The translations under genes and the position numbers were made by a program. The notes under the pieces were generated by a model. It saw nothing but the letters and a program-made list of their open reading frames with translations. It did not search any database and was not told where the DNA came from. Shown piece after piece: positions 1-60,703 of a stretch of DNA of 64,000 nucleotides; within the stretch, counting starts at the first letter, position 1; each line of letters opens with the position of its first letter. The DNA comes from an uncultured bacterium (GTDB lineage Bacteria; Bacteroidota; Ignavibacteria; UBA10030; BY39), in the NCBI GenBank assembly GCA_937967455.1, contig CALCJK010000016.1:27485-91484 (forward strand), read 5' to 3'.

Positions 1-1
1 T

Positions 2-448
2 TTTTTCATTTTTTTAGTCGCAACAAATAGTTGCAGGAAAAAATCTGAATTAGAAAAATTAATTCCAGAGAAATTAGGTAATTTTGAACTGGAACAGATT
101 GAGCATAATACTGAAAATATTTTAATCCATTCTACAATAAAACCCACAAATAACTTAAAAGCAACATATTTATTTAAACAAAATTCTGCTGAACTTTATT
201 TGTATAGCTATAAAGATACTATAAGTGCTATTTCCGCATTTCACTATATTATGAGAGAATTGAGATCGGATACAGTTAATTACAAACATATTATACCTCG
301 ATTTGATGTGAATATATTCTTTATAATGGCATTAAAGGATGATAAAGCTAATTATGTTTTCACGAAATCAAGGTATATTTACTGGTTAAATTGTGATAAA
401 CGCTCAGGTGAGAATATTATTAAAGATCTTATAAATTATAGTCGTTGA
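2..448 (+). CDS. hypothetical lipoprotein, 5'-truncated by the window edge
   Basis: The reading frame is open from position 2 through the TGA at 446-448, so the 82-aa track ORF at 200-448 is just the tail of this longer frame. The N-terminal residues FFIFLVATNSCRKK look like the end of a signal peptide with a lipobox-like cysteine. No family recognised. Confidence 0.4.
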   Translation, partial: FFIFLVATNSCRKKSELEKLIPEKLGNFELEQIEHNTENILIHSTIKPTNNLKATYLFKQNSAELYLYSYKDTISAISAFHYIMRELRSDTVNYKHIIPRFDVNIFFIMALKDDKANYVFTKSRYIYWLNCDKRSGENIIKDLINYSR

Positions 449-506
449 TAATTATTTAAATTCTTTTTATATTTATCTAAATTTAAATTAAACATAAGAT
501 AATAAA

Positions 507-580
507 GCGCCAGTAGCTCAACTGGATAGAGCATCAGCCTACGGAGCTGAGGGTTAGGGGTTCGACTCCCTTCTGGCGCG
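507..580 (+). tRNA. tRNA-Arg (anticodon ACG)
   Basis: The cloverleaf is readable by eye. The 7-bp acceptor stem pairs GCGCCAG (507-513) with CTGGCGC (573-579). The D arm is GCTC...GAGC, the anticodon stem TCAGC/GCTGA with loop CTACGGA (anticodon ACG), and the T arm contains GGTTCGACTCC. The discriminator is G580. No CCA is encoded. Confidence 0.85.
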
Positions 581-604
581 CATTATTAATTAATTAACTA
601 TTCG

Positions 605-1720
605 ATGGATTCTGCAGAAAAAGACAAAATATTAATAGTTGATGATGAAGAAATCCTCAGATTTCTGATATCTTCAAAGTTGGAGGAGGCGGGATTTAAA
701 GTTGATACTGCATCAAATGGTATGATATGTTTACAAAAACTTCCAGCTTTCCAGCCAGATCTTATAATCCTTGATATAAATATGCCACTTATGGATGGCA
801 TTTCAACAGCGCTTGAAATTAGAAAAAATAAATCTTTCTCTAAAATTCCGATAATCTTTCTGACTGGCGCAGATTCAACTGATTCAGTACGTGCTGCTTT
901 TGAAGCAGGTGGCGATGAATTTCTATCTAAACCAATTAACGCAGATGAACTTTTAATCAGAATCAACGCTCTTTTGAGAATGTACAGAGCCGAAGTGGAA
1001 GCTGAAAATCTATCACGGAAATTTCATTATTTGCTTATACAGGATTTTTTAAATTATTCTACTGCCGTTAAGTTACCACTAACAATGCTTGCTGAAGAAT
1101 CACTCGGACCTCTAAATGAACAACAAAAAGAAATTGTTAATTTAGCTATTAAAGCATTAAATGAAAATATACAACTCCTGCAGGAAACGGCTCTTTTTAT
1201 AAAATTAGATCCAACCAAAATTGCAATTAATCGTAAACCTCAAAATATTATCAAGCTGATAAATGAGAACATACAAAAATTCAATATATTGATTGATAAA
1301 AAAAATATTGTGTTATATACCGATTTCCCATCTGATGAGCTAATACTTGAAATAGATGAAGAACACATTAAACAATCACTATTTTTGCTATTAAATTATG
1401 TGATAGAGCGGGTACCTAATAGAAGTAATATTCATCTTGGAGTATCGCTGATGGATGGCTTGTCTGGAGAAGAAAAATATTTTAAATTTTCCATCAAGGA
1501 TTCCAGTGAACCAATAAGTGAAGATGAAATTAATCTTTTAATCGATCGGTACGAACAAGCCAGATGGAATAAAATAAGCATGGAAAAAAACTTATCACTC
1601 ACTATTTGCAAACTCGTTATTGAGGCACATAATGGCAAATTCTGGTGCGAAAGTAAAGAGGATGGCAATTATTATAATTTTTCAATACCGATGAATCTAC
1701 TCAATAATAAAAATTTGTAA
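605..1720 (+). CDS. response-regulator receiver domain fused to a degenerate histidine-kinase-like (DHp + HATPase_c-like) region
   Basis: The N-terminus is a canonical CheY-like receiver: the DD pair in ILIVDDEE, the phospho-acceptor Asp in DLIILDINMP, and a conserved Lys in LSKP. The C-terminal half aligns by eye to the catalytic half of the sensor kinase at 30855-32627 (NLSLTICKLVIEAHNGKFW against GLGLWICKEIVEAHKGRIW). The G1 box reads DSSEP instead of DxGxG. The G2 box has lost its glycines, and the H-box histidine appears replaced. Confidence 0.75.
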   Translation: MDSAEKDKILIVDDEEILRFLISSKLEEAGFKVDTASNGMICLQKLPAFQPDLIILDINMPLMDGISTALEIRKNKSFSKIPIIFLTGADSTDSVRAAFEAGGDEFLSKPINADELLIRINALLRMYRAEVEAENLSRKFHYLLIQDFLNYSTAVKLPLTMLAEESLGPLNEQQKEIVNLAIKALNENIQLLQETALFIKLDPTKIAINRKPQNIIKLINENIQKFNILIDKKNIVLYTDFPSDELILEIDEEHIKQSLFLLLNYVIERVPNRSNIHLGVSLMDGLSGEEKYFKFSIKDSSEPISEDEINLLIDRYEQARWNKISMEKNLSLTICKLVIEAHNGKFWCESKEDGNYYNFSIPMNLLNNKNL

Positions 1721-1729
1721 GGCAATCTG

Positions 1730-2122
1730 ATGGAAATATCAATTTTGAAATCTTCAATTTTAATCGTGGATGACTCCGATTATATTAAAGCTATTACAAG
1801 CACTCTCTTAAAAAGAGAAGGTTTCACAAATATTTTTGTTGCAAGCGATGGAATCTCTGCTCTTGAAAAATTTAAGGAAATTAATCCGGACATTGTTATC
1901 CTTGATATAATGCTACCCAAAATGAATGGTCTGGATGTTTTATTAGAAATGAGGAAGTTAAATCCACAGGCAAAAATTATTGTTATCTCATCCCTTGCAA
2001 CAATAGAAAATATACAGCAAGCAAAAAATTTAGGTGCAGCATATTATCTTGTTAAACCTTTCGATAATCAATACTTTATAAAAGTTGTAATAGATTTACT
2101 AACTACAAAAGGAAAGGAGTAG
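1730..2122 (+). CDS. single-domain CheY-like response regulator
   Basis: ILIVDDSDYIK, the phospho-acceptor Asp in DIVILDIMLPKMNG, and the conserved Lys in LVKPF. At 130 aa it is receiver only. It begins 10 nt after the upstream stop. Confidence 0.85.
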   Translation: MEISILKSSILIVDDSDYIKAITSTLLKREGFTNIFVASDGISALEKFKEINPDIVILDIMLPKMNGLDVLLEMRKLNPQAKIIVISSLATIENIQQAKNLGAAYYLVKPFDNQYFIKVVIDLLTTKGKE

Positions 2123-2124
2123 CT

Positions 2125-2448
2125 ATGTTATGTCCTACTTGTAACAACGAAAACGCCCCTCAAAGATTATATTGTGCTAAATGTGGAAGTATGTTAAATT
2201 CTAAAAGACACTTTTGTGGATTTGTTAATAACGAATCAGATATTTATTGTGGTGGTTGTGGCATGATTTTGAAAGAATCTGAGGTAAAACCTGATGTTGA
2301 TATTAAAGGTAAAAATATTTTTAGCCTAAATACCGAATTAATAACCGAAGAGGATATAAAAAATATTCTTGAGGAGTGTTCATTACAGTTTACATCCAGG
2401 AAATCATCTCTAACTCAGGAAGAAATAGAAAAATTATTCAAATCATAA
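2125..2448 (+). CDS. small double zinc-ribbon protein
   Basis: Two CxxC...CxxC pairs (CPTCN...CAKCG and FCGF...YCGGCG) sit in the first 50 aa. An RBS-like AAAGGAAAGGAG lies upstream. The start is 3 nt after the upstream stop. Confidence 0.5.
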   Translation: MLCPTCNNENAPQRLYCAKCGSMLNSKRHFCGFVNNESDIYCGGCGMILKESEVKPDVDIKGKNIFSLNTELITEEDIKNILEECSLQFTSRKSSLTQEEIEKLFKS

Positions 2449-2466
2449 AAACAAAAGGGAGTTGAT

Positions 2467-4149
2467 ATGTTATTTGATGAAGATATCGCCTTTATTACAA
2501 ACTTAATTACCAAGAATATTTTAGATAAAACGCAATACGAGAGATTGCAAAAAACTTTGAAAGAAAGCCCAAACCGTACCTGTACTGATGTGCTAGTTGA
2601 AGAATTTGGTATTTCAGATAGTTTGATAAGACAGGAGATTGCAAAATTATATAACATTCCAGAAGTTGTCATAAATGAGGGAAACATTACATTAAAAGAA
2701 AGTTTATTATCTAACGCAACTTGCATAAAATATCGATTAATTCCTGTGAGTGTAATGGGTACGGAGCTGACTGTAGCTTTTATAAACTCACCATACAAAA
2801 ATTTGCTTGAATTATTAAAGCAGGAGGCTAAAAAAGTAATAATTCCTGTGGTAATTTCTTATTCAAATTTTAAGAACCTTTTGAAGTCATCTGCTAAAGA
2901 AGAACAAGTAAAAATTGTTAGTAAAATAAATTTCGAGCAATTTGATATTCGTAAAGTAAGTAAGGATAAAATATTAGAGGCACACAAACTCGGGCGATTA
3001 CCATCTATTGAAACTTTACTCGACGAAATAATCATTCAAGCATTAAATGCAAATGCACACGATATCCACTTTGAAACCTTGGAAAATGAACTCCGCGTAA
3101 GAATTGATAAAGATGGTGTGTTTGAAAGATTGGTTTCTTTCCCAAAGGAGTTTATTGAATTTTTTGGCAATGTTATTAAAACTAAAAGTGGACTTAATAC
3201 TTTTGAAAGAAAAAAACCACAAGAAGGCTCGTATACTGTTGAAATCGGAAATAATGAAATAGATATTCGTGTTATTACTTTACCAGTACTCTTTGGAGAA
3301 AGAATAGCACTCAGGTTATTTATTAAGAAAGCAACCATTAAACCAATTGAAGACCTGGGATTTTTAAATAAAGATCTTGATAATATACTTTATCTGTTAA
3401 ATAAACCCTTTGGCTTGATTTTAATTACAGGCCCTGCAAGCAGTGGTAAAAGTACATCTCTTTATGGGATGGTGAGTGAGTTAAATCGACCAGAAAAAAA
3501 TATTATTACTGTTGAAGATCCCATCGAGTTTAAACTTGATTTTGCTACTCAGGTAAATCTCGGTACCGATTCATCATCAAATTTGGAAATTTTAAAAGCA
3601 ATTTTAAAACAAAGACCTAATGTTATAATGCTTAGCGAAATTCGTGATGCTGAGACTGGGATTATTGCTGCTGAGGCTGCTTTAAATGGAAATCTTGTGC
3701 TCTCCACAATGCTTGCGGACAGTGCAATCGGTACTATCCCGCAATTATTACACAAGGGTATTCCAAACCACTGGCTGGCACCAACTTTACTCGGAGTAAT
3801 AAGTCAAAAATTGGTAAGAAAAATTTGTAACGATTGTAAAGAAGAGTATATCCCATCCAGAGAGGAACTTCAAAGAATTGGGATTCAAGATGTTAATCTT
3901 GAATTAAAATTTTATAGAGGGAAAGGCTGTTCAAATTGTGGTGGGACTGGCTATAGTGGTAGAACCATAATTTATGAGATATTAATAGTTGATGAGGAAA
4001 TGAGAAATCAAATTTTTCAGGACCCTTCAATTAAAAAATTGAAAGAAATAGCAATCAATGGTGGTTTTAAAAATATTAGATATAATGCAGTTAAAAAAAT
4101 TCTTCTTGGAGATGTTTCAACATCAGAAGTCGTTAGAGCATTAGGATGA
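2467..4149 (+). CDS. GspE/PilB-family secretion/pilus ATPase with N-terminal GspE_N-like domain and C-terminal tetracysteine motif (atypical motifs)
   Basis: Walker A reads GPASSGKST, the Asp box/Walker B region reads [12 protein letters not shown], and the C-terminus carries CNDCK...CSNCGG (CxxC...CxxC). The N-terminal roughly 110 aa resemble a T2SS-E N-terminal domain. The His-box region reads [11 protein letters not shown], so the usual His is missing. Confidence 0.8.
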
Positions 4150-4622
4150 AACAGGAACAGAAAAGATATGAATATTGGATGGAAATTGCCCTCAGAGAAG
4201 CAGAAAAAGCCTATGAAAATGATGAAGTTCCAGTTGGAGCCATCATTGTTTTTTCAAATCAAATTATAGGTAAAGGTTATAATCAGATTGAAAAATTGCA
4301 GGATCCGACTGCGCATGCAGAGATGATCGCAATTACAGCAGCTGCATCATACTTGAAATCGCGTAGGTTTGAAGGTTGTGAGATGTATGTAACGCTTGAA
4401 CCCTGTGCAATGTGTGCAGGAGCAATAGTTTTAGCCCGTATTCCAACACTGATTTTTGGAGCGTATGATAATAAAGCTGGTGCCTGTACTTCTCTTTATA
4501 CAATAGTAAACGATATTCGATTAAACCATCGTGTACATACAAAAGGTGGGATTTTAGAGGATAAATGTAGTAATTTGCTAAAGGAATTTTTTCTTACAAA
4601 AGCCCGTAAAAATAGTGTTTAA
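4146..4622 (+). CDS. tadA: tRNA-specific adenosine deaminase
   Basis: The CMP/dCMP-deaminase zinc motifs HAEMIAI and PCAMCAGAI are present. The size (158 aa) fits. The start codon overlaps the upstream stop as ATGA. Confidence 0.85.
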
Positions 4623-4750
4623 ATAATTGCTTTTTAATTCAAATTTTCTTATAATCCACTTGAAGCCTGGCAGTTGTGTCACCACCGCCTCCCGATTAAA
4701 TATATATGTTCTGATAATAAAGATTTAAAAATAAAAAAAGGAGTTGTTAT

Positions 4751-7700
4751 ATGAAAAAGATAATTTACTTTTTGTTCTACATTATTATTTTATTAGTAAT
4801 TTTCTATGATGATGCTAAATCACAACAGGTTTTATTATATGAAGGATTTGAGTCACCTGCATCTCCAGGATTACCACCAGGATGGACAACTACAACAATC
4901 CGTCGTCCAACTGGTGACTGGTTCGATACGACTTTAGTTGCTAATTCGGGTTCACAGGTATGTTATAATATTGATGCAACAAAAGAACAAATATTATACA
5001 CTCCTTCAATTAATTTTACAGGTTATTTAGCTGATTCAATTATATTTTATGCTAGAAGATCATCATCATTTAATGCGATCTTAAGTTGGGAAGTATCAAC
5101 AAACAATGGAAGTACTTGGGAATTAATTGACACACTCGTATATTCTATTCCTACTGGTGGTTTCAAAAAATATTCTTTTAAAATTCCCTCATTTGTTGAT
5201 AATTTGAGTAATGTCAAATTTAGATATAGGAATCAGGGTAATGGAACTGGAGCTGGTGGAACTATTCGAATTGATGATGTTACAATTTATGGTTTGAAAA
5301 CAGCAATTGACGATGGTGATGGAACTGCAACATTAGTAAATGATGGCGCAGGAATATTAAATGGATCACCAATATTTTCTAGGAACAGTTCAGGGCAAAC
5401 AATAAAAGTAACAATTACAGGTTTATCAGTAGGATTATTGGATCAAGTTCGTCTCACTGTCCCATCCGATTTCTCAGGCTTTAGTGGTAGCAATGTTACT
5501 CTTGGCGGTGCATTTGCTGGTAAATCAACAAGCATAGTTGGTAACAAAATAACTGTACTCAATGCTGCATTAGGAACAACTCCTGGTACAATTACTATCT
5601 CAAATCTAACATCCCCGAATCCGGTGGGTTCGGCACTGAATGGAAACTCAACCTGGTTAGTAGAAACTGCAAAATTAGGTGGGACTTTAACACCTATCCT
5701 CGTTTCACCAATTTCATATACAATAATTCCAATTTCTAATATCAAAACTGGTGGAGTTGATGGTTATGGTAATAGCGACGACGGTAATACACCGGTAATG
5801 TTGGGACAGATTGTTGCAGTTAGTGGGGTTGCAACAATTGAACATCAAGTTTTGAACACTGCAAGTTATACAAGCTTTTACATACAGGAAGGCACATACG
5901 GGTTACAGGTATTTAGAAATGCTGCACCAGTTGTAACCTGGGTAAGGGGCGATCAGTTAATATTAAGAGGTACAATAGGGCAATATAATGGTGGTATGCA
6001 AATAGTCCCATTCAGTGGAACTTCACCCAATTTCTTTAATCTGGGTGCTGGTACAATGCCAAGTCCGTTAATTCTTACAAACGCTTCAGATATAACTGAA
6101 CAGTATGAAGGAAGGTTAATTCAGCTAAATAATGCAACCTTCGATTCTGCCGGTCAGACATTTATTGGTAGTGCGGTAGATCGTGGTATGAATAATTTTA
6201 GGACATCACCGGTTGATACAGGTACTTTGTTTATACATGGTTCTAACACAGCTGTAGTAGGCAAAACAATTCCTGCATCTGCAAATATTCTCGGTGTGGT
6301 ACATCAGCGTAATGATATAATTGGTGCAGGGCAAACAAAATATAAAATTGCAATCCGAAATATGGCAGACCTTGGACTTAATCCTGCTGATGGTTCAGGT
6401 ACAGCTACGATAAGTCCAACTCAACAGATTGTTGGTACCACATCGTTGACACAGACCATTGTACTCAAAGGTGATGGAGTTAATACAATAGGTGGAATGA
6501 GTGTAACAATACCATCAAGTTGGACCTGGACTGGGAATGCCGCTCATGTCGATATTTCAGGACCTGGTTTTGCATCAGCATCAAAAGCAATTAGTGGAGA
6601 TGGAAGTTCAGGAAATCCCTGGGTTATTACACTTGAACCAACGGCAGTAACAAATTCAGACACTGGAATTGTTACAATTACAAATTTGACAGCTCCATCG
6701 GTTACAGGTTCAACCACATTTTTTATTAAAACCAAAGGTGTTGGTGGTACATATGAAGCAATCGGTGTTCAACCAACTGTTACAATAATTACAGCCCCAG
6801 CTACGCTTCCATTTGTAGAGATTTTTGATTATCCAACAGGAGATAAGCTTACTGATCACGACTGGAGTGCACATAGTGGTGCTGGAACTAATTCAATAAC
6901 GGTAAATGCAGATCCGTTAATTTATAGCGGTTACATTCATTCTGGTGTTGGTAAATCTGTTACTTTAACTACATATGGCGAGGATGTTAACAGAGTATTT
7001 GAATCTGTTAACACCGGATCTATTTATGCTTCGTTTATGGTAAAATTCGATACAGCATTGGCTTCACCCGAATATTTCTTCCACTTGAGTCCTGCTGGAG
7101 TACCAACTACTCATACTGCAAGAATTTATTTCAAAAAAGATCCATCTGGAAATATTGCTTTTGGTGTAACCAAAGGTGCGGCACCTGATACTGGATGGAC
7201 AGCTTATAATTATTCATTAGGTACTACATATTTATGTGTGTTGAAATATACATTTAATACAGGCTCGACTACTGACGATGAAATTAAACTCTGGATTAAT
7301 CCTGACTTGAGCGGATCAGAACCAACAGCTGATATAATTTATACAACTTCAACCAATGATCCAAGCAATTTAGGTACTGTTGCACTACGGCAGGGTGCAG
7401 GCAATTCTACACCTGCAGTAACAATTGGTGGTTTGAGAATAGCAACAAGCTGGATACCGTCAAGCTCGACTTCTTTAAATATTGTCTATAACCAGGGATG
7501 GAATATGATTTCTGTGCCGGTTATAGTTCCAGACTTCAGAAAATCTGTTGTCTTCCCAACAGCTGTCTCCTCAGCTTTTGCGTTTGATAATGGATATAAA
7601 ACAAAAGATACTTTGGAAAATGGAGTAGGTTACTGGTTGAAATTTGCCTTTAACCAAACTGTTTCGATGGATGGTATACCTCGCATTTCAGATAGCTGCA

Positions 7701-8635
7701 ATGTTAAACAGGGATGGAATATGATTGGAACATTGAGTGTTCCCGTTTTAGTCAGTCAAGTGACTCCTGGTTCTGGAGTAACGATTCTTTCACAATTCTA
7801 TGGTTATCTTAATGGTTATCAAACTGTAGATACACTGAAACCAGGTAAAGCTTATTGGGTTAAAGTATCCGCTGATGGTAAGTTGTATTTGAATTCTACA
7901 TTAAAATATTCGAAACAAAGAGATGCGTTATTGGAAAAAGTTAAGAAATTAAATACAATTACAATTAAAGATGCTGCTGGATCAATACAAACACTGTACT
8001 TTGGGGAAGATGAGAATTTATTAGCGAATATTGATTATTTCGAACTTCCACCTGCAGCACCTGCAAATGTATTTGATGTTAGGTATCAAACAAATCGTTT
8101 TGTTGAGCTCTTTTCATCAAAATCTAATTCTGTGGAATCTTATCCAGTATCAATATCTGGAGCTGTTTATCCGCTTACAATTGAATGGAGTATTAATAAC
8201 TCGAATGATCTTGTTTACGAATTAAGCCAGGTTATCGATCAGGATCAAAGAAATCACATTACACTTAATCAATCAGGAAGTATTCAGATTACAGATAATA
8301 ATGTTATCGGATTACAGCTTAAAGCTGGTGGTAAAGAATTAATGCCCAAAGAATTTGGGTTGAGCCAGAATTATCCAAATCCGTTTAATCCAACAACAAA
8401 AATGATTATTTCACTACCTAAGAATGCCTATGTGAAATTAGCTATTTATGATATATTGGGTAGAGAAGTTGAAAAATTAATTGATAAGGATATGACAGCT
8501 GGTAATCATACGGTTGAAATTAGCTTAAATTCAACGAAATCACTACCAAGTGGTGTATATTTTGCGAAAATGACCGCAAAATCAGCAGATTATGAAAATT
8601 TGAATTTTGTGCGGAAGATCACAATTTTGAAGTAA
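4751..8635 (+). CDS. large secreted protein with T9SS C-terminal sorting domain (function unknown)
   Basis: A signal peptide (MKKIIYFLFYIIILLVIF) leads a Gly/Thr/Ser-rich body. The C-terminus carries the Por-secretion-tail signature QNYPNPFNPTT...LAIYDILGREV...LPSGVYFAKM. A strong RBS AAAGGAG is present. An internal duplicated GWNMI...GYWLKF / GWNMIG...AYWVKV module is visible. Confidence 0.7.
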   Translation: MKKIIYFLFYIIILLVIFYDDAKSQQVLLYEGFESPASPGLPPGWTTTTIRRPTGDWFDTTLVANSGSQVCYNIDATKEQILYTPSINFTGYLADSIIFYARRSSSFNAILSWEVSTNNGSTWELIDTLVYSIPTGGFKKYSFKIPSFVDNLSNVKFRYRNQGNGTGAGGTIRIDDVTIYGLKTAIDDGDGTATLVNDGAGILNGSPIFSRNSSGQTIKVTITGLSVGLLDQVRLTVPSDFSGFSGSNVTLGGAFAGKSTSIVGNKITVLNAALGTTPGTITISNLTSPNPVGSALNGNSTWLVETAKLGGTLTPILVSPISYTIIPISNIKTGGVDGYGNSDDGNTPVMLGQIVAVSGVATIEHQVLNTASYTSFYIQEGTYGLQVFRNAAPVVTWVRGDQLILRGTIGQYNGGMQIVPFSGTSPNFFNLGAGTMPSPLILTNASDITEQYEGRLIQLNNATFDSAGQTFIGSAVDRGMNNFRTSPVDTGTLFIHGSNTAVVGKTIPASANILGVVHQRNDIIGAGQTKYKIAIRNMADLGLNPADGSGTATISPTQQIVGTTSLTQTIVLKGDGVNTIGGMSVTIPSSWTWTGNAAHVDISGPGFASASKAISGDGSSGNPWVITLEPTAVTNSDTGIVTITNLTAPSVTGSTTFFIKTKGVGGTYEAIGVQPTVTIITAPATLPFVEIFDYPTGDKLTDHDWSAHSGAGTNSITVNADPLIYSGYIHSGVGKSVTLTTYGEDVNRVFESVNTGSIYASFMVKFDTALASPEYFFHLSPAGVPTTHTARIYFKKDPSGNIAFGVTKGAAPDTGWTAYNYSLGTTYLCVLKYTFNTGSTTDDEIKLWINPDLSGSEPTADIIYTTSTNDPSNLGTVALRQGAGNSTPAVTIGGLRIATSWIPSSSTSLNIVYNQGWNMISVPVIVPDFRKSVVFPTAVSSAFAFDNGYKTKDTLENGVGYWLKFAFNQTVSMDGIPRISDSCNVKQGWNMIGTLSVPVLVSQVTPGSGVTILSQFYGYLNGYQTVDTLKPGKAYWVKVSADGKLYLNSTLKYSKQRDALLEKVKKLNTITIKDAAGSIQTLYFGEDENLLANIDYFELPPAAPANVFDVRYQTNRFVELFSSKSNSVESYPVSISGAVYPLTIEWSINNSNDLVYELSQVIDQDQRNHITLNQSGSIQITDNNVIGLQLKAGGKELMPKEFGLSQNYPNPFNPTTKMIISLPKNAYVKLAIYDILGREVEKLIDKDMTAGNHTVEISLNSTKSLPSGVYFAKMTAKSADYENLNFVRKITILK

Positions 8636-8681
8636 GATTATCACTATTTTAGTTACAAGAGAAGCACCGCTCTTAAAAAAT

Positions 8682-8716
8682 AATGTCCCGGCTCGAAATT
8701 TATGAGCTGGGACATT
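8682..8716. terminator. 13-bp hairpin (AATGTCCCGGCTC / GAGCTGGGACATT, 9-nt loop) in the gap between two T9SS cargo genes; possible terminator or attenuator
   Basis: The inverted repeat has one G-U position. The T-tract follows on the minus strand (AUUAUUUUUUAA) rather than clearly on the plus strand, so the direction is ambiguous. Confidence 0.3.
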
Positions 8717-8803
8717 ATGAAAAATATATAAAGCCCAGCGACTATATTAATTAGGATCAAAAAAGTTTTTCTGAAAAATGAAAATTCTAAAAGGAGTAAT
8801 ACC

Positions 8804-10189
8804 ATGAAAACCAGATATTTTATAACTTTTATTTTTATATTTTTATTCTGTTCTTTTCACCTTTTTAGTTATGATGGTGAGACCTACAGATCTTTTTCTC
8901 CTGTGAATCTGGCTACAGCAGAGAAAGCTGTTAAAAAACAAGTAAGCGCAAGTGAATGGAGTTTTACCTTTACAAATAATACAAATTATAGTGTTAATGG
9001 ATTGTATTTCGAATCAGCATCGAGTATTATTAATATTGACGATATTGGATTGTTTAACACTGTATCAAATTTGACAGCTGATCGTAAGAAGTGGCAATTT
9101 AATGGAACAGCTACAATTTCTCCAGGTCAATCTGTGGTAATAAAAGGGACTGGAACAAAGAAAGCATTAAAAATTTCAAAATGGTATTGGACTGTGAACG
9201 GTAATCGTGTTGGTTTTGTAAATAGATCATCACCTCCAGGTGAACAGAAATTTTTCTTGCCGATGCCAAATATCTCAAATTTAGGTGAAGAACTTTTTAA
9301 ACGCACTGACCTTTCAAAAGGGCTTGTTATTGGTATACCTCAAACGGTAAAAAATACAAATTATGCATGGGTTAGAATCAAGAAATGGAAGGATTTGCAG
9401 AAAAACTTAATTGATAATACTGGTATGCACATAGGGAATCCTCAAGGATTCAAAAGCTTTATTGATGGTAAACCAATTAAAGGTGAACAAAAATTATTAT
9501 CACCTAAAAAATTTAATGATAGATTATTTGCAGAACTTTTAACATTAAAATTTAACATTGCGGCAAGTAAATATGGTAGAACACCTGTAGGTTTTGATAA
9601 TTTAATTTACAATGATCCGACAAGTCCACTAAATGGATTGACAATTAATCAGATTGCCCTCAAAGCAGATTCGGCAATGACGTTCTACACAAAATTTTCA
9701 ACTGGTATGTTTATTATTTTGGAACAGACTATTAACAGAATTAACCGTGCCTTTGAAGGAGAAATTGATACTGTGAGTTTTGGTGCTAAAACAGTTTTTA
9801 CCGGAACTAGAGGATTGAGTGAAGTCAACTTTTTAACGGCTGGAAGGACCTCTTCAACAGTAACTTTGATTGAAAGAGAAAGTTTGCTAGATGAGGAATC
9901 TACATTTGAAATACCAGTACAAAATTATCCGAATCCTTTTAACCCAAAAACAATAATTGAATTTAAATTAAATAATGATGCGTTGGTAAGTTTGAAAGTT
10001 TATGATATGTTGGGAAGAGAAATTGCGGTATTGGCAGATGATGAGATGTTTGATGCAGGAGTGAATAGTGTTGAATTTGATGGGCAAAATTTAGCAGCTG
10101 GTATTTACTTTTACCAATTGATTGTTCGAGATGTAGATACGCAAGATTTGCTCTTTAAAACAGCAAAAAAGATGATTTTAAACAAGTAG
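8804..10189 (+). CDS. secreted protein with T9SS C-terminal sorting domain (function unknown)
   Basis: It has a signal peptide and an RBS AAAAGGAG. The C-terminal QNYPNPFNPKT...LKVYDMLGREI...AAGIYFYQL tail is present. It shares a roughly 160-aa pre-tail module with the next gene. Confidence 0.7.
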   Translation: MKTRYFITFIFIFLFCSFHLFSYDGETYRSFSPVNLATAEKAVKKQVSASEWSFTFTNNTNYSVNGLYFESASSIINIDDIGLFNTVSNLTADRKKWQFNGTATISPGQSVVIKGTGTKKALKISKWYWTVNGNRVGFVNRSSPPGEQKFFLPMPNISNLGEELFKRTDLSKGLVIGIPQTVKNTNYAWVRIKKWKDLQKNLIDNTGMHIGNPQGFKSFIDGKPIKGEQKLLSPKKFNDRLFAELLTLKFNIAASKYGRTPVGFDNLIYNDPTSPLNGLTINQIALKADSAMTFYTKFSTGMFIILEQTINRINRAFEGEIDTVSFGAKTVFTGTRGLSEVNFLTAGRTSSTVTLIERESLLDEESTFEIPVQNYPNPFNPKTIIEFKLNNDALVSLKVYDMLGREIAVLADDEMFDAGVNSVEFDGQNLAAGIYFYQLIVRDVDTQDLLFKTAKKMILNK

Positions 10190-10359
10190 GACAAAAAATT
10201 GCCTATTTTTTGTGATTTAGGGCATTTTTTAGAATATTTTTTTAAAAAAAATTAACTAACCACTTGCATCAAATCAAAGAAAATTATATATTATAGCAAA
10301 ACTCATTGCTATTTAATGGGTTAGCAAAATTATTAATATGTAAAGTCGAGTATAAAAAT

Positions 10360-12741
10360 ATGAAGCTACCCAAAAAGTTTTTAATTGCAAATATTATTCT
10401 GTTAATAAAGAGTTTTGTAGCACTTTCGCAATGGCCATGTTCTTCTAACGAGGCTTTACCAGTTGTAACTGAAGCAAATAATCAATGGAATCATAGTGTT
10501 TTACTCGACGGTGATGGAGATATCATATATTTATGGCAAGACAAGCGTTCAGTGACTTATGAAAATGTTTATCTACAGTGTTTCAAAAAGATAGGTGTTT
10601 CAGATTGGCAAGTTGGTGGAATTCCAGTTGCTAATTCAACTGGAAATCAATCAGGTGCACGCGCAATTGCTACAAATACTGGTGTTATAGTTGTATGGCA
10701 TGATAATCGAAAAGGGACAGACTACGATATATATGCTCAAAAGTTTGATAAGTCTGGAACTGCATTATGGGCTGCTAATGGTATAGTAATTTGTAATGCC
10801 TCAGGTAATCAGCAGAATCCAAGAATAGTTCCAGATAATCAAAATGGTGTAATAATTGTTTGGCAAGATAGGAGGAACGGAACAGACAATAATATTTACG
10901 CACAAAGAATTAACTCAAATGGACAAATACAATGGACTTCAAATGGAGTAATAGTCTGTTCTGCACCATATGATCAATTTAATCCTGAAGTAGTTACTGA
11001 CGGAAATGGTGGTGCTATAGTAGCATGGCACGACTATAGATCAGGTAATGGATATATAGATATTTATGCTCAAAGAATTTCATCGACAGGGACAATGATA
11101 TGGCAGGCAAACGGTGTTCCGATTACAACAGCAAGCAATAATCAATACAATTTACAGATAATACAAGATGGATATAAAGGTGCAATTATTGTTTGGCAGG
11201 ATCGGCGAAATTTAACAAACGATGAATTGTATGGTCAAAGAGTTAGCCCTTCGGGTGCTATACTCTGGCAACTCAATGGTAGCCCAATATCTACAGGGAG
11301 TGGTTTCAAATCTTATCCCAAACTTGCATCCAATAGTAATGGCGGTGCTTATGTAGTTTGGCAGGATAATCGGAATGGCATCGATTACAATATCTATATA
11401 CAGAATGTTTCATTATTTGGGGAACTATTGTGGACCGCAAATGGTGTTCCTGTTTGTAGTGCTACGGGACATCAATACTATCCTCAGATTGGATCCGATA
11501 CCAATGGTAATGCTATTGTAGTATGGCAAGATAAGAGAAATGGTAATGACTTTGATATTTATGCTCAGAGGCTTGATGCAAATGCAGTTCCAAAATGGAC
11601 AGTGAATGGAGTTCCGGTTCAAGTAGCACCTTATGATCAAATTGAACCCAAAATTGTAATGGATGAGGATGGTGGAGCTATCATATCATGGACTGATTAC
11701 AGGGTAGGTAATAGTTATTCAGATATTTATGCTCAGAGAATAGGTGTTAATGGTAAAATTGCGGGTGGTTGTTTTAGAACCTTTACTCAAGGTGATTTTA
11801 TAATGAAGGGAAATCGACTTAAAGTTTCTTCTAGTGTACCGCGCCCAATGCCGAATGGTGGAAATGTTAGAGATACACTATTTAAGCGTGGTTTATTCCC
11901 ACAGGGAATTGTCATAGGTATCGCTAAACCGGAAAGTTCCTCTGTTTATGGTTGGATTAGATTACAAAGAAGTTCAAATGTTCGCCGTTTTCTCCCACAA
12001 TCTGGTTATCCCAGACCTTTTGATATGAGAGGAACAAAATATTTTATCAAAGAATTAAAGAATCCAACCCAAAGAATATATGACAACCATCTTGTAGGTG
12101 AATTGTTAACACTTAAATTAAATTTAGCAGCAAGCGATAATGGCATAATTCAAAGTGGACTTGGAGAAATTATATATTATGATACCACTAAAGGTAATGG
12201 TTTTAACGGGAAATCTATTCGAAGAATAGTTGCAATCGCTGACAGTGCTTTAACTAAGTGGAGAAGCTATCCTGGCTTTAACTACTTGTTACTTGACTCT
12301 GTGCTAACAAGGATCAATAATGCTTTTTATGGACCAATCGATACTATTTCTGTCACACCACTTAAATTAAAGAATGTTAGAAGTGTATATAGTATCCCAT
12401 ATTTGCGCCTCGATAATACAAATCCTAAATCTCCTGTTTTACTATCACATTATGAACCTGATGATCAACCACAATCACTTAAGTTATTCCAAAATTATCC
12501 TAATCCTTTTAATCCTTACACAACAATCGAATTTGAACTTACAGAGCCAGCAATTGTAACTTTGATTATTTATAATACATTGGGTCAGGAAATTACCAGA
12601 TTGCTAGATAACGAAGAGATTGAATCTGGTAGAAATTCAGTTACTTTCGACGCTTCAGGCTTGGCAAGTGGAATTTATTTTTACAATCTCATTGTTAACC
12701 ATTCAATACAACATACCAGAAGAATGTTACTGTTAAAGTGA
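10360..12741 (+). CDS. secreted repeat protein (eight tandem ~58-aa WQDxRNG...DIYAQR repeats, probable beta-propeller) with T9SS C-terminal sorting domain
   Basis: The track ORF starts at 10306. The signal-peptide-like MKLPKKFLIANIILLIKSFVALSQ begins at the in-frame ATG at 10360. Eight repeats follow and the C-terminal tail reads QNYPNPFNPYT...LIIYNTLGQEI...ASGIYFYNL. Confidence 0.7.
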   Translation: MKLPKKFLIANIILLIKSFVALSQWPCSSNEALPVVTEANNQWNHSVLLDGDGDIIYLWQDKRSVTYENVYLQCFKKIGVSDWQVGGIPVANSTGNQSGARAIATNTGVIVVWHDNRKGTDYDIYAQKFDKSGTALWAANGIVICNASGNQQNPRIVPDNQNGVIIVWQDRRNGTDNNIYAQRINSNGQIQWTSNGVIVCSAPYDQFNPEVVTDGNGGAIVAWHDYRSGNGYIDIYAQRISSTGTMIWQANGVPITTASNNQYNLQIIQDGYKGAIIVWQDRRNLTNDELYGQRVSPSGAILWQLNGSPISTGSGFKSYPKLASNSNGGAYVVWQDNRNGIDYNIYIQNVSLFGELLWTANGVPVCSATGHQYYPQIGSDTNGNAIVVWQDKRNGNDFDIYAQRLDANAVPKWTVNGVPVQVAPYDQIEPKIVMDEDGGAIISWTDYRVGNSYSDIYAQRIGVNGKIAGGCFRTFTQGDFIMKGNRLKVSSSVPRPMPNGGNVRDTLFKRGLFPQGIVIGIAKPESSSVYGWIRLQRSSNVRRFLPQSGYPRPFDMRGTKYFIKELKNPTQRIYDNHLVGELLTLKLNLAASDNGIIQSGLGEIIYYDTTKGNGFNGKSIRRIVAIADSALTKWRSYPGFNYLLLDSVLTRINNAFYGPIDTISVTPLKLKNVRSVYSIPYLRLDNTNPKSPVLLSHYEPDDQPQSLKLFQNYPNPFNPYTTIEFELTEPAIVTLIIYNTLGQEITRLLDNEEIESGRNSVTFDASGLASGIYFYNLIVNHSIQHTRRMLLLK

Positions 12742-12786
12742 TGTTTTAAGTCGAAAATTTATTATTAAATAAAAAAGTGTTTTATT

Positions 12787-15700
12787 ATGAATAGAATTTT
12801 AATTGTTTTGTTCTTTTCTTTTTATTTTTTTAATTCAGGTGGTTCATCAGAATTATATAAACAAGTAAAAATATTTATTCCCGATCAAACTTCTTTTCAA
12901 AGACTTTTAGAAACTGGAATTGATCTCGAGGGAGCTGAAGGTAAGATAGGTGATTGGTTTCAGGTAGTAGTTAATGAAGAAGATTTAAAATTATTAAATC
13001 AAACTGGATTAACTTATTATATTATCATTGATGATTATTCAAAATTTTTAGAAAATCGCCTTTATAAAGGTCCATATAACGCTTTAGGTTTTGGTTACGG
13101 AAGTATGGGGGGATATTATACATATAGTGAAATCATTCAACAGCTTGATTCTATGAAGCTACTCTACCCCGATCTAATAACTGCTAAACAAATTATCGGT
13201 ATATCCATTCAGGGAAGGAATATTTATGCAGTGAAAATTTCAGATAATCCAGATATTAATGAAACTGAGGAGCCATCTGTACTATATACCGCTCTCACAC
13301 ATGCGCGTGAACCGCAAGGTATGATGACTATAATTTACTACATGTGGTGGCTTCTGGAAAATTATTCTTCTAATTCTGAAGCAAATTATTTGGTAAATAA
13401 TCGTCAGATATGGTTTATTCCAGTCATCAATCCCGATGGTTATTATTATAATCAGACCACTAATCCAAATGGTGGTGGACTGTGGCGTAAAAATCGAAGG
13501 AATAATGGAGATGGTTCATATGGAGTGGATTTAAATAGAAATTTTGGACCTTATGCATACTGGAATGCTCCTAACGGTGGATCAAGTACGACACCTTCGT
13601 CTGATACATATCGTGGTGTAGCTCCATTTTCTGAGCCAGAAACAAATACAATCCAAAACTTTTTAGCCGGCAAAAATATTCGTGCCTGTTTAAACTATCA
13701 TACATATAGTAATTTGCTGATTTATCCATATGGTGCTTTAGTTAGAGAAACTCCTGATTCCTTGATTTATAGGGAATATGCAAAAGATATGACTAAATAT
13801 AATCGTTATGTGTATGGTACAGATCAACAGACAGTTGGATATGCTACCAGAGGTAATAGTGATGATTATATGTACGATGGGGACATACCAAACAATGGGA
13901 AAATTTTTGCTATGACGCCTGAAGTTGGTTCGAGTAGTGATGGTTTTTGGCCACCAACTCCTAGGATTCTACCGCTCGCTCTCGAGAATCTTTATCCGAA
14001 TAAATATTTATCCAAAGCAGTAGGTGCATTTCCTCAAATGTTAACTCATAATGTCAATGATAGTTCAGGAGATAATTTTATAGACCGTGATGAAAAATTT
14101 ATATTAAATATAGTATACCGAAACAAGGGTTTGGACTCAGCAAAAAATTTATCATTACAATTGTCTACTTTAAGTGAGGATTTGATAATTCCAGCTGAAC
14201 CAATTTACATCGATAATATTCCTCCTCTCTCAAATCAAATTGTAAATTTTGATTGTAGAGTTAAGAAACGAGCTACTACCGGTGTAAGTACAAAAATATT
14301 TCTAACAACTATTGATAATTCAGGATATATATCGTATGATACATTAAATATTTTGATCGGAAAGTTAAATTTGGCTTTTTCTGATAGCGCCAATGATGGT
14401 ACAATTAACTGGGATACTGGAATAAGCTGGGGGCTATCAAATGATGCGCAATCTCCACCGTTCAGTTTTACAGATAGCCCGAGTGGGAACTATGCTAATA
14501 ACACTGATAACAGCCTGACACTTCTAAATAATAGAAAATTGGCTTCAAGTTCTATGATTAAACTGCTCTTTTCTGCTAAATGGAACATTGAAGCTAAATA
14601 TGATTTCGCTATGGTTGAAGTATCCAGTAACGGAGGTACATCTTGGACGTCAGTAAATGGAAAATATACAAAACCTGGTAGCGGTGTGGGAGTACAAACA
14701 ATTGGTACATATGGTTACGACGGTATACAATCAAGCTGGATAGAGGAGGAAATGGATCTATCCCCATTTGCATCATCGCAATTCAAAATACGTTTTCGGC
14801 TACGCAGTGATGGTAGTGTAAATGCAGATGGTTTTTATGTAGATAATATTAGATTATTATATTGTAAAGTGGACAGTGCAAAATTTGCTGAAATGGCTTA
14901 CACTCCACCCTTAATTGATTTTGGAAATGTTCATGTGTATAATACAAAAGATTCAAGCATCCTGATTCAAAATCTCTTAACTTCTAACGACTCACTTCGA
15001 TGCAATATACAATTAAAGTATGGTATTGATTTTATTTTGGGTTCTCAATCAAATTTTTCAATACCAGTCGGCTCTGAAGAAAATCTACAAGTAACATTTT
15101 ATCCCCAGTCGGTAGGATTGATTACTGATACTTTAATTATTAATCATTCAAGTGATGTGTATGATAATCCAGTTTTGGTTCCTTTACTTGGTAATTCGAT
15201 AATATCAAATAGTTTTTTTGCTGATTTGATTATTAAATATAATTTGAATTTAGATACACTATATTTTGGGGCAGAGGATGGTGCAAGCGATACCCTGGAT
15301 CCAGATTTTGGAGAAATTGAACTCGATGAATTACCACCACAAGGAGTATATGATGCAAGATGGTCTATCAATGGAACAAATGGTTCCAAAATAGACATTA
15401 GGGATACAATTTCTGAAACCAAAATTAAAAATATTTATAGATTAAGATATCAGCTCTCGCAGCAAAATGACACAATCATAATTAAATGGAATAAAAACAA
15501 GTTTGGATCTGGTTCATTTATACTTAAGGACTCTATTACGAATGGTGATTTAGTTTTAATGGATATGAAAAAGAATGATTCATTAATAATAGTTGGTGAA
15601 GATGCTTCTCCCTTGTTGATATTCCATGAAATAAATCCTTTACTTGTAGTTAAGGTTAATAAGGGGTGGAATATTATTTCAGTACCAACTGAATTGGATT

Positions 15701-16779
15701 TTTATCATAAAAATTTTGTTTTTCCTGGTTCTGTTTCTTTAGCTTTTGGTTATAATAATTCTGAAGGTTACTATTCTGTTGATACTTTATCCATTGGAAA
15801 AGGTTATTGGCTAAAATTTAAGTCCGATAGGGAATGTTTGTTTACAACTTCACAAATATTAATAGATACAATTTCACTGACGCAGGGGTGGAATTTGATT
15901 GGAGCAATTGGTAAAAACATTAAAGTTGAGAACATCGAAACAGTACCAGAAAATATTATTTCTTCTCCTATTTATGGTTACTTTGATGGTTATAAGATGG
16001 CCGATACCTTAAAACCAGGTTATGGATTCTGGCTGAAATCCGATCAAAATGGTAAATTAATACTTAATGCACTTAATTCTAACAATAATCTTTCTAAAAT
16101 TAGAATCAACAATGAGTTCATTAATTCTTTACTAATCACTGATAATTTAGGTAATCAGGGTCAATTGTATTTTACACTAAATAATTTAGAAAACATTGCT
16201 TATTATACACTACCACCTTTACCTCCAATTGAAATTTTTGATGTTAGATTTAAATCTCAAAGATTTATTGAATTAATTGATGGTATCAATAATATCTCTA
16301 GTGAAATTCATGTTCAAACCAATAACTATCCTATTAAAATTTCTATTGAGAATGAACTCAGGAAAGATGTTAATTTAATTTTAAGGATAAAAGCTTCAGA
16401 TGGCAAAACAAAAGATTATCCTTTAATTTGTTTTTCCTCCATAACAATCTCTAATCCAGATGATAGAATATTCTTAATAAACTCCAAAATTGAAGACAAT
16501 AAAGATAATCTTCCGGGCGAATATTATCTTGCTCAGAATTATCCAAACCCATTTAATTCAAAGACGCTTATTCAATATTCAATTCCAGAAAATACATACG
16601 TATCATTGAAGCTTTATGATATACTTGGGCAAGAAATGAAGAGTTTGATAGGTCAATATCAAACAAAAGGATATTACACATACGAGTTCAATGCCGAAGG
16701 TTTACCCACAGGAGTATATTTTTATAAACTTCAAGCCGGGAGGTTTGTAAGTATAAAAAAATTGGTTTTAATAAGGTAA
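12787..16779 (+). CDS. M14-family zinc carboxypeptidase domain protein with long C-terminal extension and T9SS sorting domain
   Basis: After the signal peptide come the M14 hallmarks: THAREPQG (the HxxE zinc ligands), IPVINPDGYYY, and NYHTYSNLLIYPYG (the third zinc ligand). The tail is AQNYPNPFNSKT...LKLYDILGQEM...PTGVYFYKL. Confidence 0.75.
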   Translation: MNRILIVLFFSFYFFNSGGSSELYKQVKIFIPDQTSFQRLLETGIDLEGAEGKIGDWFQVVVNEEDLKLLNQTGLTYYIIIDDYSKFLENRLYKGPYNALGFGYGSMGGYYTYSEIIQQLDSMKLLYPDLITAKQIIGISIQGRNIYAVKISDNPDINETEEPSVLYTALTHAREPQGMMTIIYYMWWLLENYSSNSEANYLVNNRQIWFIPVINPDGYYYNQTTNPNGGGLWRKNRRNNGDGSYGVDLNRNFGPYAYWNAPNGGSSTTPSSDTYRGVAPFSEPETNTIQNFLAGKNIRACLNYHTYSNLLIYPYGALVRETPDSLIYREYAKDMTKYNRYVYGTDQQTVGYATRGNSDDYMYDGDIPNNGKIFAMTPEVGSSSDGFWPPTPRILPLALENLYPNKYLSKAVGAFPQMLTHNVNDSSGDNFIDRDEKFILNIVYRNKGLDSAKNLSLQLSTLSEDLIIPAEPIYIDNIPPLSNQIVNFDCRVKKRATTGVSTKIFLTTIDNSGYISYDTLNILIGKLNLAFSDSANDGTINWDTGISWGLSNDAQSPPFSFTDSPSGNYANNTDNSLTLLNNRKLASSSMIKLLFSAKWNIEAKYDFAMVEVSSNGGTSWTSVNGKYTKPGSGVGVQTIGTYGYDGIQSSWIEEEMDLSPFASSQFKIRFRLRSDGSVNADGFYVDNIRLLYCKVDSAKFAEMAYTPPLIDFGNVHVYNTKDSSILIQNLLTSNDSLRCNIQLKYGIDFILGSQSNFSIPVGSEENLQVTFYPQSVGLITDTLIINHSSDVYDNPVLVPLLGNSIISNSFFADLIIKYNLNLDTLYFGAEDGASDTLDPDFGEIELDELPPQGVYDARWSINGTNGSKIDIRDTISETKIKNIYRLRYQLSQQNDTIIIKWNKNKFGSGSFILKDSITNGDLVLMDMKKNDSLIIVGEDASPLLIFHEINPLLVVKVNKGWNIISVPTELDFYHKNFVFPGSVSLAFGYNNSEGYYSVDTLSIGKGYWLKFKSDRECLFTTSQILIDTISLTQGWNLIGAIGKNIKVENIETVPENIISSPIYGYFDGYKMADTLKPGYGFWLKSDQNGKLILNALNSNNNLSKIRINNEFINSLLITDNLGNQGQLYFTLNNLENIAYYTLPPLPPIEIFDVRFKSQRFIELIDGINNISSEIHVQTNNYPIKISIENELRKDVNLILRIKASDGKTKDYPLICFSSITISNPDDRIFLINSKIEDNKDNLPGEYYLAQNYPNPFNSKTLIQYSIPENTYVSLKLYDILGQEMKSLIGQYQTKGYYTYEFNAEGLPTGVYFYKLQAGRFVSIKKLVLIR

Positions 16780-51460: not shown

Positions 51461-51491
51461 AAAAATTATTAAATAAAATAGTATCAAAAAT

Positions 51492-60574: not shown

Positions 60575-60703
60575 TTTGCTAAATTTGTTTTTAAGATAAC
60601 CAAAGATTTTTAAAAATACAAGATACATTATTTGATTTTAAGTGCTACTATTATTATAATTAATATGTTAAATAAAAATATTAGATGTTTTATGATAATA
60701 GTG

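Follow-up and report, generated by a model that had tools for sequence, protein, structure and literature searches.

Is a gene for a PilB/GspE-type ATPase that lies among receiver-domain genes, away from any pilus or secretion gene, a fragment of a dispersed pilus operon or part of a different system? In the usual view, ATPases of this type are motors that depend on a PilC/GspF platform protein, and the His box is a catalytic element that nearly all of them possess. The question is posed by a 64,000-nt stretch of DNA (hereafter, the window) from Ignavibacteria (UBA10030, BY39), corresponding to positions 27,485-91,484 of the forward strand of contig CALCJK010000016.1 (assembly GCA_937967455.1). 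An earlier, sequence-only reading of the window had described five packed plus-strand genes at 605-4622, encoding, among others, two receiver domains, a pseudokinase, a zinc-ribbon protein and a GspE/PilB-like ATPase, and had proposed that this five-gene operon is a signalling or motor-regulation module and not a classical type II secretion system (T2SS) or type IV pilus (T4P). We confirmed all five open reading frames (ORFs) on the plus strand at these positions. The locus looks like an undescribed signalling module rather than a piece broken from an operon for pili or secretion, and, judging from its occurrence in other genomes, three genes make up the unit that different phyla share; they encode a receiver (REC) protein, a double zinc-ribbon protein of ~105 aa and a PilB/GspE-family ATPase.

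We analysed the ATPase (gene 4, 560 aa, 2467-4149, plus strand) with Pfam, NCBIfam, alignments to proteins of the PDB and a tree. The Pfam T2SSE match of 304 bits and the presence of the superfamily motifs bear out its designation as GspE/PilB-like, and its best matches among solved structures are Thermus PilF and Vibrio GspE (E ~1e-83 to 1e-78). It fails the curated cutoffs for PilB (TIGR02538, 379.4 bits over residues 10-557, cutoff 675.65), GspE (TIGR02533, 360.5 bits, cutoff 630.25) and TfpB, the accessory T4P extension ATPase (NF053534, 287.6 bits, cutoff 850); the PilB and GspE scores are about half of their cutoffs. The Walker A motif (GPASSGKS, aa 322-329), the Asp-box glutamates E350/E354, the catalytic E391 of the atypical Walker B motif, the Arg fingers R268/R283 and the four-cysteine site C454/C457/C488/C491 can all be recognized, and the Walker A lysine, the Asp-box and catalytic glutamates, the arginines with Arg-finger spacing and the four cysteines are invariant columns in an alignment of homologues (A1). 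By most of its motifs gene 4 is a member of the PilB/GspE/PilT secretion-NTPase superfamily, the exception being the His box.

Both His-box histidines are replaced in gene 4. In a gap-free HMMER alignment with Thermus PilF, the positions of H413 and H420 of Geobacter metallireducens PilB are occupied by Asn409 and Leu416, within a degenerate box at aa 407-420 (3685-3726, plus strand); the canonical box is TGHLVxSTLHTNDA, and its PilF counterpart is TGHLVIATLHTNDA. Throughout the superfamily a histidine of this box is conserved to a high degree, and H420 of Geobacter PilB contacts the γ-phosphate and mediates cooperativity between the chains (PMC5424180). Both histidines were missing in all but one of the 120 best homologues with a readable motif, a set that includes a family of ~418 aa without an N-domain, and the replacement leucine was itself fixed (pattern N/T-G-N...ST-M-L). 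In contrast, the canonical PilB-like proteins used for comparison all keep the His-box histidine, except for one row (L065) where the pattern failed. Since the other catalytic residues are invariant and the replacement leucine is fixed, the degenerate box represents a constrained variant and not decay. Gene 4 probably still binds ATP but would hydrolyse it slowly or without coupling between subunits, and the loss of the His box would fit a switch better than a power motor. Neither this loss nor the FliM-like motif described below, in our view the most informative features of the locus, had been noticed in the sequence-only reading.

In a neighbour-joining tree, the ATPases associated with REC and zinc-ribbon genes formed one clade apart from the PilC-linked PilB proteins, and the proteins lacking the histidines formed a single monophyletic subclade (200 of 200 bootstraps in each case). 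The PilC-linked group includes PilB proteins of Ignavibacteria themselves, from two of the genome loci that we fetched (L052 and L035; loci are referred to by such numbers throughout). In the sampled loci of the gene 4 clade, REC and/or zinc-ribbon genes were always adjacent to the ATPase gene. Among the matches listed, PilC was found in none of the 14 loci with ATPases of this clade (none within ~10 kb) versus 46 of the 62 loci from other lineages (within a few genes in each of the 46); the comparison loci are PilB loci sampled largely at random, from a scan of genome contigs with the alignment of the ATPases, and not a census.

The statement that no pilin, PilC/GspF, secretin or prepilin peptidase is encoded in the 64 kb proved correct as far as Pfam scans and a six-frame search can tell: we found no T2SSF, N_methyl, secretin or peptidase_A24 domain in the 40-odd window ORFs of at least 110 aa, and no pilin-type signal by regular expression in any of the six frames of the window. 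Pilus genes immediately upstream of window position 1 had been named as a sign of an ordinary pilus operon. The exact ATPase of the window was found on public contigs, one of which (9.5 kb) reaches ~4 kb past position 1; these ~4 kb hold genes for an extracytoplasmic function (ECF) sigma factor, an 83-aa protein, a phosphatase/fn3 protein secreted by a type IX secretion system (T9SS) and a 155-aa protein, and no pilus gene. The core of the earlier proposal, a signalling or motor-regulation module distinct from a classical T2SS or T4P, is supported by the separate clade, the lack of PilC in the listed loci and the low PilB and GspE scores; the description as a five-gene operon needs correction (see below). 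The lack of linkage, moreover, is compatible with action on a pilus encoded elsewhere, which the label ‘orphan’ does not exclude. Pilus motors such as PilT are usually not linked to pilC.

We also looked for a site through which cyclic di-GMP (c-di-GMP) might control the ATPase. The MshEN match of gene 4 (20.9 bits) is below the Pfam cutoff of 23.1, and neither the full nor a relaxed version of the c-di-GMP motif (RLGxx(L/V/I)(L/V/I)xxG(L/V/I/F)(L/V/I)xxxxLxxxLxxQ) was found in gene 4 or in any ATPase of the REC/zinc-ribbon clade. The PilB of L052, a canonical Ignavibacteria locus in which a PilB with the canonical histidine is followed by PilC and pilin genes, keeps the motif complete (RIGDLLVEKGLLTPAQLQAALEEQ). 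The loss of this motif is a further feature that the sequence-only reading had overlooked. Control by c-di-GMP through MshEN was therefore rejected for the clade of the module.

We compared the surroundings of the ATPase gene in other genomes. The closest proteins came from metagenome-assembled genomes of Ignavibacteria, and in L001, L002/L003 and L008 (ATPase identity 81%, 56% and 52%, respectively) the order REC-pseudokinase, CheY-like protein, zinc-ribbon protein and ATPase is kept, following a tRNA-Arg(ACG) gene as in the window. The unit of REC, zinc-ribbon and ATPase genes also occurs in other Bacteroidota (L004, L009, L010 and L012), and the unit or a part of it was found in Planctomycetota (L096) and in lineages with 54-74% GC (L098-L101); L093 has the zinc-ribbon and ATPase genes only, and in L096 the REC gene lies 3′ of the ATPase gene. 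Genuine or CheA-like kinases are adjacent in L012 (a genuine hybrid histidine kinase 3′ of the unit), L100 and L096, where a CheA-like Hpt-HATPase protein lies near the module and a STAS protein is a further neighbour (5926-7711). In L098/L099 (74% GC) the order is REC, zinc ribbon, ATPase, CheX, DivIVA (L098 7345-8443), CheX being a phosphatase of CheY-P, and a WYL regulator is among the neighbours in L004. The CheX/DivIVA and STAS/CheA-like neighbours are possible clues to input and output of the module.

The zinc-ribbon family is large, with 638 representatives at E ≤ 1e-10 in an exhaustive profile search. A word-indexed search with the window protein alone gave only 6 close homologues, and the family became visible only by profile searches and exhaustive searches of representatives. 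Each sampled member is encoded directly 5′ of a T2SSE ATPase, save that of L102, whose contig ends within the downstream ORF, and no PilC was found in the sampled loci of the wider family (L093, L096 and L098-L101). Members are annotated merely as hypothetical or ‘zinc ribbon domain-containing’ proteins. In the part of the literature that was covered, neither the trio nor the zinc-ribbon/EIDAL family nor the PilB clade without a His box turned up, which is absence of evidence only. In some Bacteroidota the REC/zinc-ribbon/ATPase units stand in tandem (L004 6877-12237, L005, L009 1716-6569, L010 7554-12295), one ATPase having a canonical His box and the other lacking it, which hints at a working pair or at subfunctionalization after duplication.

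What could connect a receiver to such an ATPase? The zinc-ribbon protein (gene 3, 107 aa, 2125-2448, plus strand) matches the Pfam double zinc ribbon DZR, in agreement with the sequence-only reading, and was further analysed with an AlphaFold2 model and family alignments. Residues 1-50 form the double ribbon; a linker (52-69) leads to a helix (75-88) with the motif ITEEDIKNILEE and to a second helix (98-104) with a terminal motif, LTQEEIEKLF (aa 96-105; 2410-2439, plus strand; located by the motif pattern). In the model the ribbon is predicted with a pLDDT (per-residue model confidence) of ~90, the linker (<50) is disordered, and the two short helices coincide with the motifs. This is how a linear motif on a tether would be expected to look. 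The same plan is seen throughout the family: the first 50 residues hold four CxxC-type pairs, and a variable linker leads to two short motifs that are conserved. The second motif has the consensus (L/V)(S/T)Qx(D/E)(I/L)Dx(L/I)F and is at most a few residues away from the C-terminus. After clustering at 50% identity, 52 of 104 short representatives have the strict terminal motif, and most of the others, judged by eye, are one position off.

The terminal motif resembles the N-terminal EIDAL peptide of FliM/FliY (LSQAEIDALL), which is the docking site for phosphorylated CheY (CheY~P) in these proteins (PMC6946799, PMC9126983). Residues 96-105 of gene 3 agree with the sequence expected of such a docking peptide, L-S/T-Q-x-E/D-I/L-D/E-x-L-L/F, and conversely the N-termini of FliM from E. 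coli (ILSQAEIDALL), Ralstonia (FLSQEEIDALL) and Azospirillum (TLSQEEIDRLL) all fit the pattern derived from the zinc-ribbon family. The pattern matches only 11 of the 1341 ORFs in the fetched loci, every one of them a zinc-ribbon protein, and its sole match in the six frames of the window is that in gene 3. This resemblance suggests that the C-terminus of gene 3 is a docking peptide for CheY~P; the candidate peptide, SSLTQEEIEKLFKS, includes I101, L104 and F105.

The proteins that might dock there are encoded just upstream. Gene 2 (130 aa, 1730-2122, plus strand) is a single-domain CheY-like response regulator (Pfam Response_reg, 97 bits), and gene 1 (371 aa, 605-1720, plus strand; analysed by Pfam and alignment) has an N-terminal receiver domain (102 bits), so that the two receivers previously put forward as regulatory input are both present. 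D12/D13, D57, T/S87, K109 and an aromatic residue at 106 (CheY numbering) are found in gene 2, in the receiver of gene 1 and in 13 other module-linked receivers. Gene 1 has kept D13/D14, the D57 equivalent, T and K; gene 2 has D12, D13, D57, S87 and K109, and its I95, A103, Y106 and V108 are as in E. coli CheY. The second half of gene 1 was correctly described as a pseudokinase. It gives a weak HATPase_c match (31.5 bits) and no HisKA match in Pfam, and the DHp/CA fold is retained, but the phospho-acceptor histidine is glutamine (QDFLNYST), the N-box asparagine is Tyr, Phe or His, DxGxG has become DSSEP and GxGLG has become EKNLS. The exchange of histidine for glutamine and the loss of the N, G1 and G2 boxes were seen in all four orthologues aligned against genuine histidine kinases. 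The QDFLN sequence retains an acidic residue at +1 and asparagine at +4, and the residue at +4 of HisKA proteins is required specifically for phosphatase activity (PMC3510030). We have moderate confidence that gene 1 is a kinase-dead dock or phosphatase for CheY, a role that would be comparable to that of CheX in L098. The sole genuine kinase of the window, a GAF-GAF-HisKA-HATPase protein (30855-32627) without an adjoining response regulator, is a candidate input kinase not linked to the module.

A second family of Ignavibacteria ATPases without His-box histidines, of ~418 aa and without an N-domain, was seen in L006 (9604-11257), L007, L011, L094 (9630-11257) and L095. These genes form two-gene units with a REC gene of their own in L006, L007, L094 (with a 4-nt overlap) and L095; no REC gene was found 5′ of the ATPase gene in L011, and neither a zinc-ribbon gene nor PilC was found within 10 kb in the loci of this family. 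The lack of both the N-domain and the zinc-ribbon gene suggests that the zinc-ribbon protein works on the N-domain of the longer ATPases. Another variation of the box was observed in tandem PilB genes beside PilC in Omnitrophota and Planctomycetota (L030, L038, L039, L046, L048, L057, L061 and L078), which have reciprocal variants: TGH..STLHTTT in copy 1 (STLHTNSA in L039 and L057) and TG(Q/E)..STLHTN in copy 2.

We propose that CheY~P docks on the zinc-ribbon adaptor and thereby gates the ATPase, which either regulates a pilus machine or acts as an autonomous switch; we put the probability of this reading, in the form set out in this paragraph, at roughly 0.55. An unlinked kinase (a hybrid histidine kinase or a CheA-like protein) would phosphorylate the CheY-like protein, and possibly the receiver of gene 1. 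CheY~P would then dock on the FliM-like C-terminal peptide, or peptides, of the zinc-ribbon protein, as the identity of the motif suggests. The zinc-ribbon protein would sit on the MshEN-like N-domain of the ATPase, for which their co-occurrence argues, and docking would gate assembly of the hexamer or the ATP cycle. Lacking the histidine that senses the γ-phosphate, the ATPase may be a slow or uncoupled switch. It would most likely target the platform of a T4P/T2SS-like machine whose genes lie in another part of the genome, and may act there as an accessory or competing motor, while the kinase-dead gene 1 protein would most likely dock or dephosphorylate CheY.

Several known systems resemble parts of this scheme. 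Gene 4 shares with PilB/GspE the MshEN/GSPII-like N-domain, the N2 and C-terminal ATPase domains, Walker A, the glutamates, the Arg fingers and the tetracysteine zinc site; in contrast to them, it lacks both His-box histidines and the RLG motif, belongs to a separate clade and was never found beside PilC/GspF in the sampled loci. As in the FliM/FliY switch, a CheY-like gene lies beside that of a carrier of an EIDAL-type peptide, on a flexible tether as in FliM. However, the motif of gene 3 is C-terminal on a zinc-ribbon protein and not N-terminal on a C-ring protein, the partner is a PilB-like ATPase and not the flagellar rotor, and the docking is putative. In archaea, CheY~P acts via the small adaptor CheF on the archaellum, which belongs to the type IV filament superfamily and is driven by a PilB/FlaI-type ATPase (PMC9126983). 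CheF is unrelated to the zinc-ribbon protein and binds CheY in another mode, and the archaellum genes are clustered, whereas the module has no linked filament genes.

The closest functional parallel would be the control of the PilB N-domain by adaptors or receivers. In Xanthomonas, a small adaptor, PilZ, reportedly regulates PilB through its N-domain together with FimX, and receiver proteins (PixE/PATAN-REC with PilB1 in Synechocystis, DrdR in Xanthomonas) are said to bind and regulate PilB directly. TfpB of Acinetobacter, a PilB paralogue encoded away from pilC, reportedly acts on the same pilus. The motors in these cases have retained the His box, no zinc-ribbon/EIDAL adaptor is known for any of them, and the TfpB score of gene 4 is far below the cutoff. 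The MshEN N-domain of PilB-type ATPases also binds c-di-GMP as a ligand (PMC5013675). PilZ-FimX and c-di-GMP thus have in common with the module a regulatory input to a PilB-type N-domain by an adaptor or a ligand; in the module, the input would be CheY~P via the zinc ribbon, the c-di-GMP motif is missing, and contact with the N-domain is suggested by co-occurrence. By analogy, the module would work most like PilZ-FimX, PixE and DrdR, with additional resemblance to the logic of CheY-FliM and CheY-CheF. For gene 1 the nearest relative in function may be DivL of Caulobacter, a pseudo-histidine kinase that binds DivK~P. Like DivL, gene 1 lacks the acceptor histidine in its DHp/CA-like module, and it is encoded beside a single-domain receiver; unlike DivL, it has an N-terminal receiver, glutamine where DivL has tyrosine, no intact ATP boxes and the +4 asparagine associated with phosphatase activity, and its receiver binding is putative.

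Gene 4 could instead be an ordinary PilB/GspE assembly ATPase whose partners are dispersed in the genome, the receivers merely tuning its expression or activity. The full-length similarity to PilB and GspE and the intact Walker A motif, catalytic glutamate, Arg fingers and four-cysteine site agree with this. So does the occurrence of pilC/pilin loci in Ignavibacteria, as in L052 and in Melioribacter, for which pilB, pilC, pilT and pilQ are reported (PMC3534657), and in other phyla CheY-like genes adjoin pilB in canonical clusters (L027, L048 and L067). We nevertheless consider an ordinary motor unlikely, given scores of about half the equivalog cutoffs, the loss of histidines that the superfamily conserves, the 0 of 14 clade loci with PilC among the matches listed, and the fact that the PilC-linked loci of Ignavibacteria own a PilB of a different clade with a canonical His box and the c-di-GMP motif. 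More can be said for an ATP-driven hexameric switch that is gated by CheY~P through the zinc-ribbon adaptor, independently of any pilus, and acts on, for example, exopolysaccharide, polarity or division, or T9SS/gliding; PilB of Myxococcus xanthus, by analogy, reportedly has a signalling role. No pilus gene is linked to the module in any lineage sampled, the neighbours include DivIVA and CheX (L098), STAS and CheA-like (L096) and WYL (L004) proteins, and the absence of a γ-phosphate-sensing histidine suits a switch over a motor. Such a switch is possible yet doubtful, as the neighbourhoods yield no conserved non-pilus partner, real pilus motors (pilT, tfpB) are often unlinked, and the retained cysteines, Arg fingers and hexamer-type architecture are typical of motors that engage a platform. 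As a tentative generalization, which we hold with similar reserve, the trio may be a widespread device in which EIDAL docking logic on a zinc-ribbon adaptor controls a hexameric ATPase switch independently of filaments, the branch of Ignavibacteria and other Bacteroidota having been specialized further by loss of the His box.

The remaining two explanations find little room beside docking of CheY~P on the adaptor. A decaying, non-functional PilB paralogue that came to lie beside two-component genes by chance would explain a degenerate His box next to a kinase-like protein that is also catalytically dead. It is very improbable, and we rejected it as effectively refuted, because more than 100 clusters conserve the full-length ORF, at identities from 98% to ~40%, the glutamates, the Arg fingers, the cysteines and Walker A are invariant, the replacement residues are fixed, and different families share the gene order. 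A conflict system, anti-phage or other, made up of an NTPase, a zinc ribbon and receivers comes to mind as defence islands often contain NTPases and small zinc-ribbon proteins and tRNA genes are common integration sites. PADLOC, however, found nothing for the ATPase or the zinc-ribbon protein, only weak receiver-domain matches and, for gene 5, just a weak match of the deaminase domain to a dCTPase model (33 bits), on which result we rejected this origin; with the flat composition, the housekeeping synteny stable across genera and no integrase or mobile-element genes in Pfam scans of the window ORFs, it is extremely improbable.

Some points weigh against CheY~P gating through the adaptor. The target of the ATPase is putative, and the docking is predicted from a resemblance over 10 residues with a pattern that was defined post hoc. 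The EIDAL motif is reportedly also bound by a MinD-type ATPase, FlhG, and by analogy the peptide of gene 3 could contact the ATPase instead of CheY. The agreement of I95, A103 and V108 with CheY is weak evidence, these positions being commonly hydrophobic in receivers. The activity cost of the His-box loss may be smaller than assumed, and the ATPase tree was built by simple neighbour joining with a midpoint root.

The locus draws attention to a clade of ATPases that spans several phyla, has no platform gene linked to it in any of the sampled loci and is tied to a CheY-like receiver through a small zinc-ribbon protein. If the docking is true, chemotaxis-type phospho-signalling would reach bacterial type IV filament ATPases via a dedicated adaptor, in parallel to CheY-FliM and CheY-CheF. 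The monophyletic branch without the His box offers a natural experiment on the role of this motif in hexamers, and the docking peptide is a short handle for tests. The peptide and this branch, taken together, could also account for the many extra MshEN/T2SSE paralogues in genomes. Many extra MshEN proteins, and fusions of MshEN to REC, CheA and CheX, have been described, and Myxococcus xanthus has 22 genes encoding MshEN (PMC5013675).

The module is preceded by a tRNA-Arg(ACG) gene (507-581, plus strand; ARAGORN and sequence), which the sequence-only reading had missed and which ends 23 nt before the ATG of gene 1, a distance that leaves no space there for a conventional promoter. The spacers between the first four genes are 9, 2 and 18 nt (the values of 10, 3 and 19 given before are coordinate differences), and genes 4 and 5 share the 4-nt ATGA overlap noted earlier. 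Judging from this spacing, the tRNA and the string of genes probably form one transcript. A scan of positions 1-5200 for sigma-70 promoters gave 27 sites versus 27.3 expected from shuffled sequences, promoters of the Bacteroidota type being outside the coverage of the tool. No terminator was found 3′ of the last gene, folding of 4618-4752 giving z = 0.5.

The profile searches that had been suggested for the five proteins, which returned the receiver, DZR and T2SSE matches above, also gave a name to gene 5 (158 aa, 4146-4622, plus strand), left unnamed before: it is the tRNA adenosine(34) deaminase TadA (NCBIfam NF008113, 168.4 bits, cutoff 150), with the zinc-site motifs HAEMIAI and PCAMC in its translation. 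The gene lies directly 3′ of the ATPase gene in the window, L001 and L008, whereas in L002/L003 it is ~6 kb off and separated from the ATPase gene by three genes, for a TonB receptor, a DUF4154 protein and a hybrid kinase. In the survey of related genomes the four module genes are thus conserved in order and the adjacency of tadA is not. We rejected a functional role of tadA in the module; it is, by its gene neighbourhoods, a housekeeping neighbour outside the conserved unit, and what was called a five-gene operon is really four module genes and tadA. The tRNA-Arg(ACG), whose A34 is deaminated by TadA, and tadA stand at opposite ends of the gene string. The tRNA has the same place in L001 (8038-8112), L002 (8052-8126) and L008 (8029-8103); L008 has an additional tRNA-Arg(TCG) right before tadA (11739-11813). 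The bracketing may go back to an ancestral tRNA-tadA pair that insertions have separated, or may reflect co-transcription of tRNA and mRNA.

The other genes of the window encode T9SS-sorted proteins, tRNA synthetases, DnaE, GlnA, a lone ComEC and enzymes of the futalosine pathway. ComEC (42586-44964, Competence and metallo-beta-lactamase domains) is solitary, with no further competence or pilus genes in the window. Four large consecutive proteins with T9SS C-terminal sorting domains (DUF5689; M14 carboxypeptidase with MAM) are encoded at 4751-16779, a block that is syntenic in L001 and L008. A 537-aa ORF without a Pfam match (34439-36052) lies 5′ of a gene for a BadF/BcrA-type CoA-enzyme activase. 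Genes for menaquinone synthesis by the futalosine route (UbiA, UbiX/UbiD-like, MqnE/MqnC-type radical SAM, VitK2_biosynth and UbiE) are clustered at 48265-54412 and 59023-60628 on both strands.

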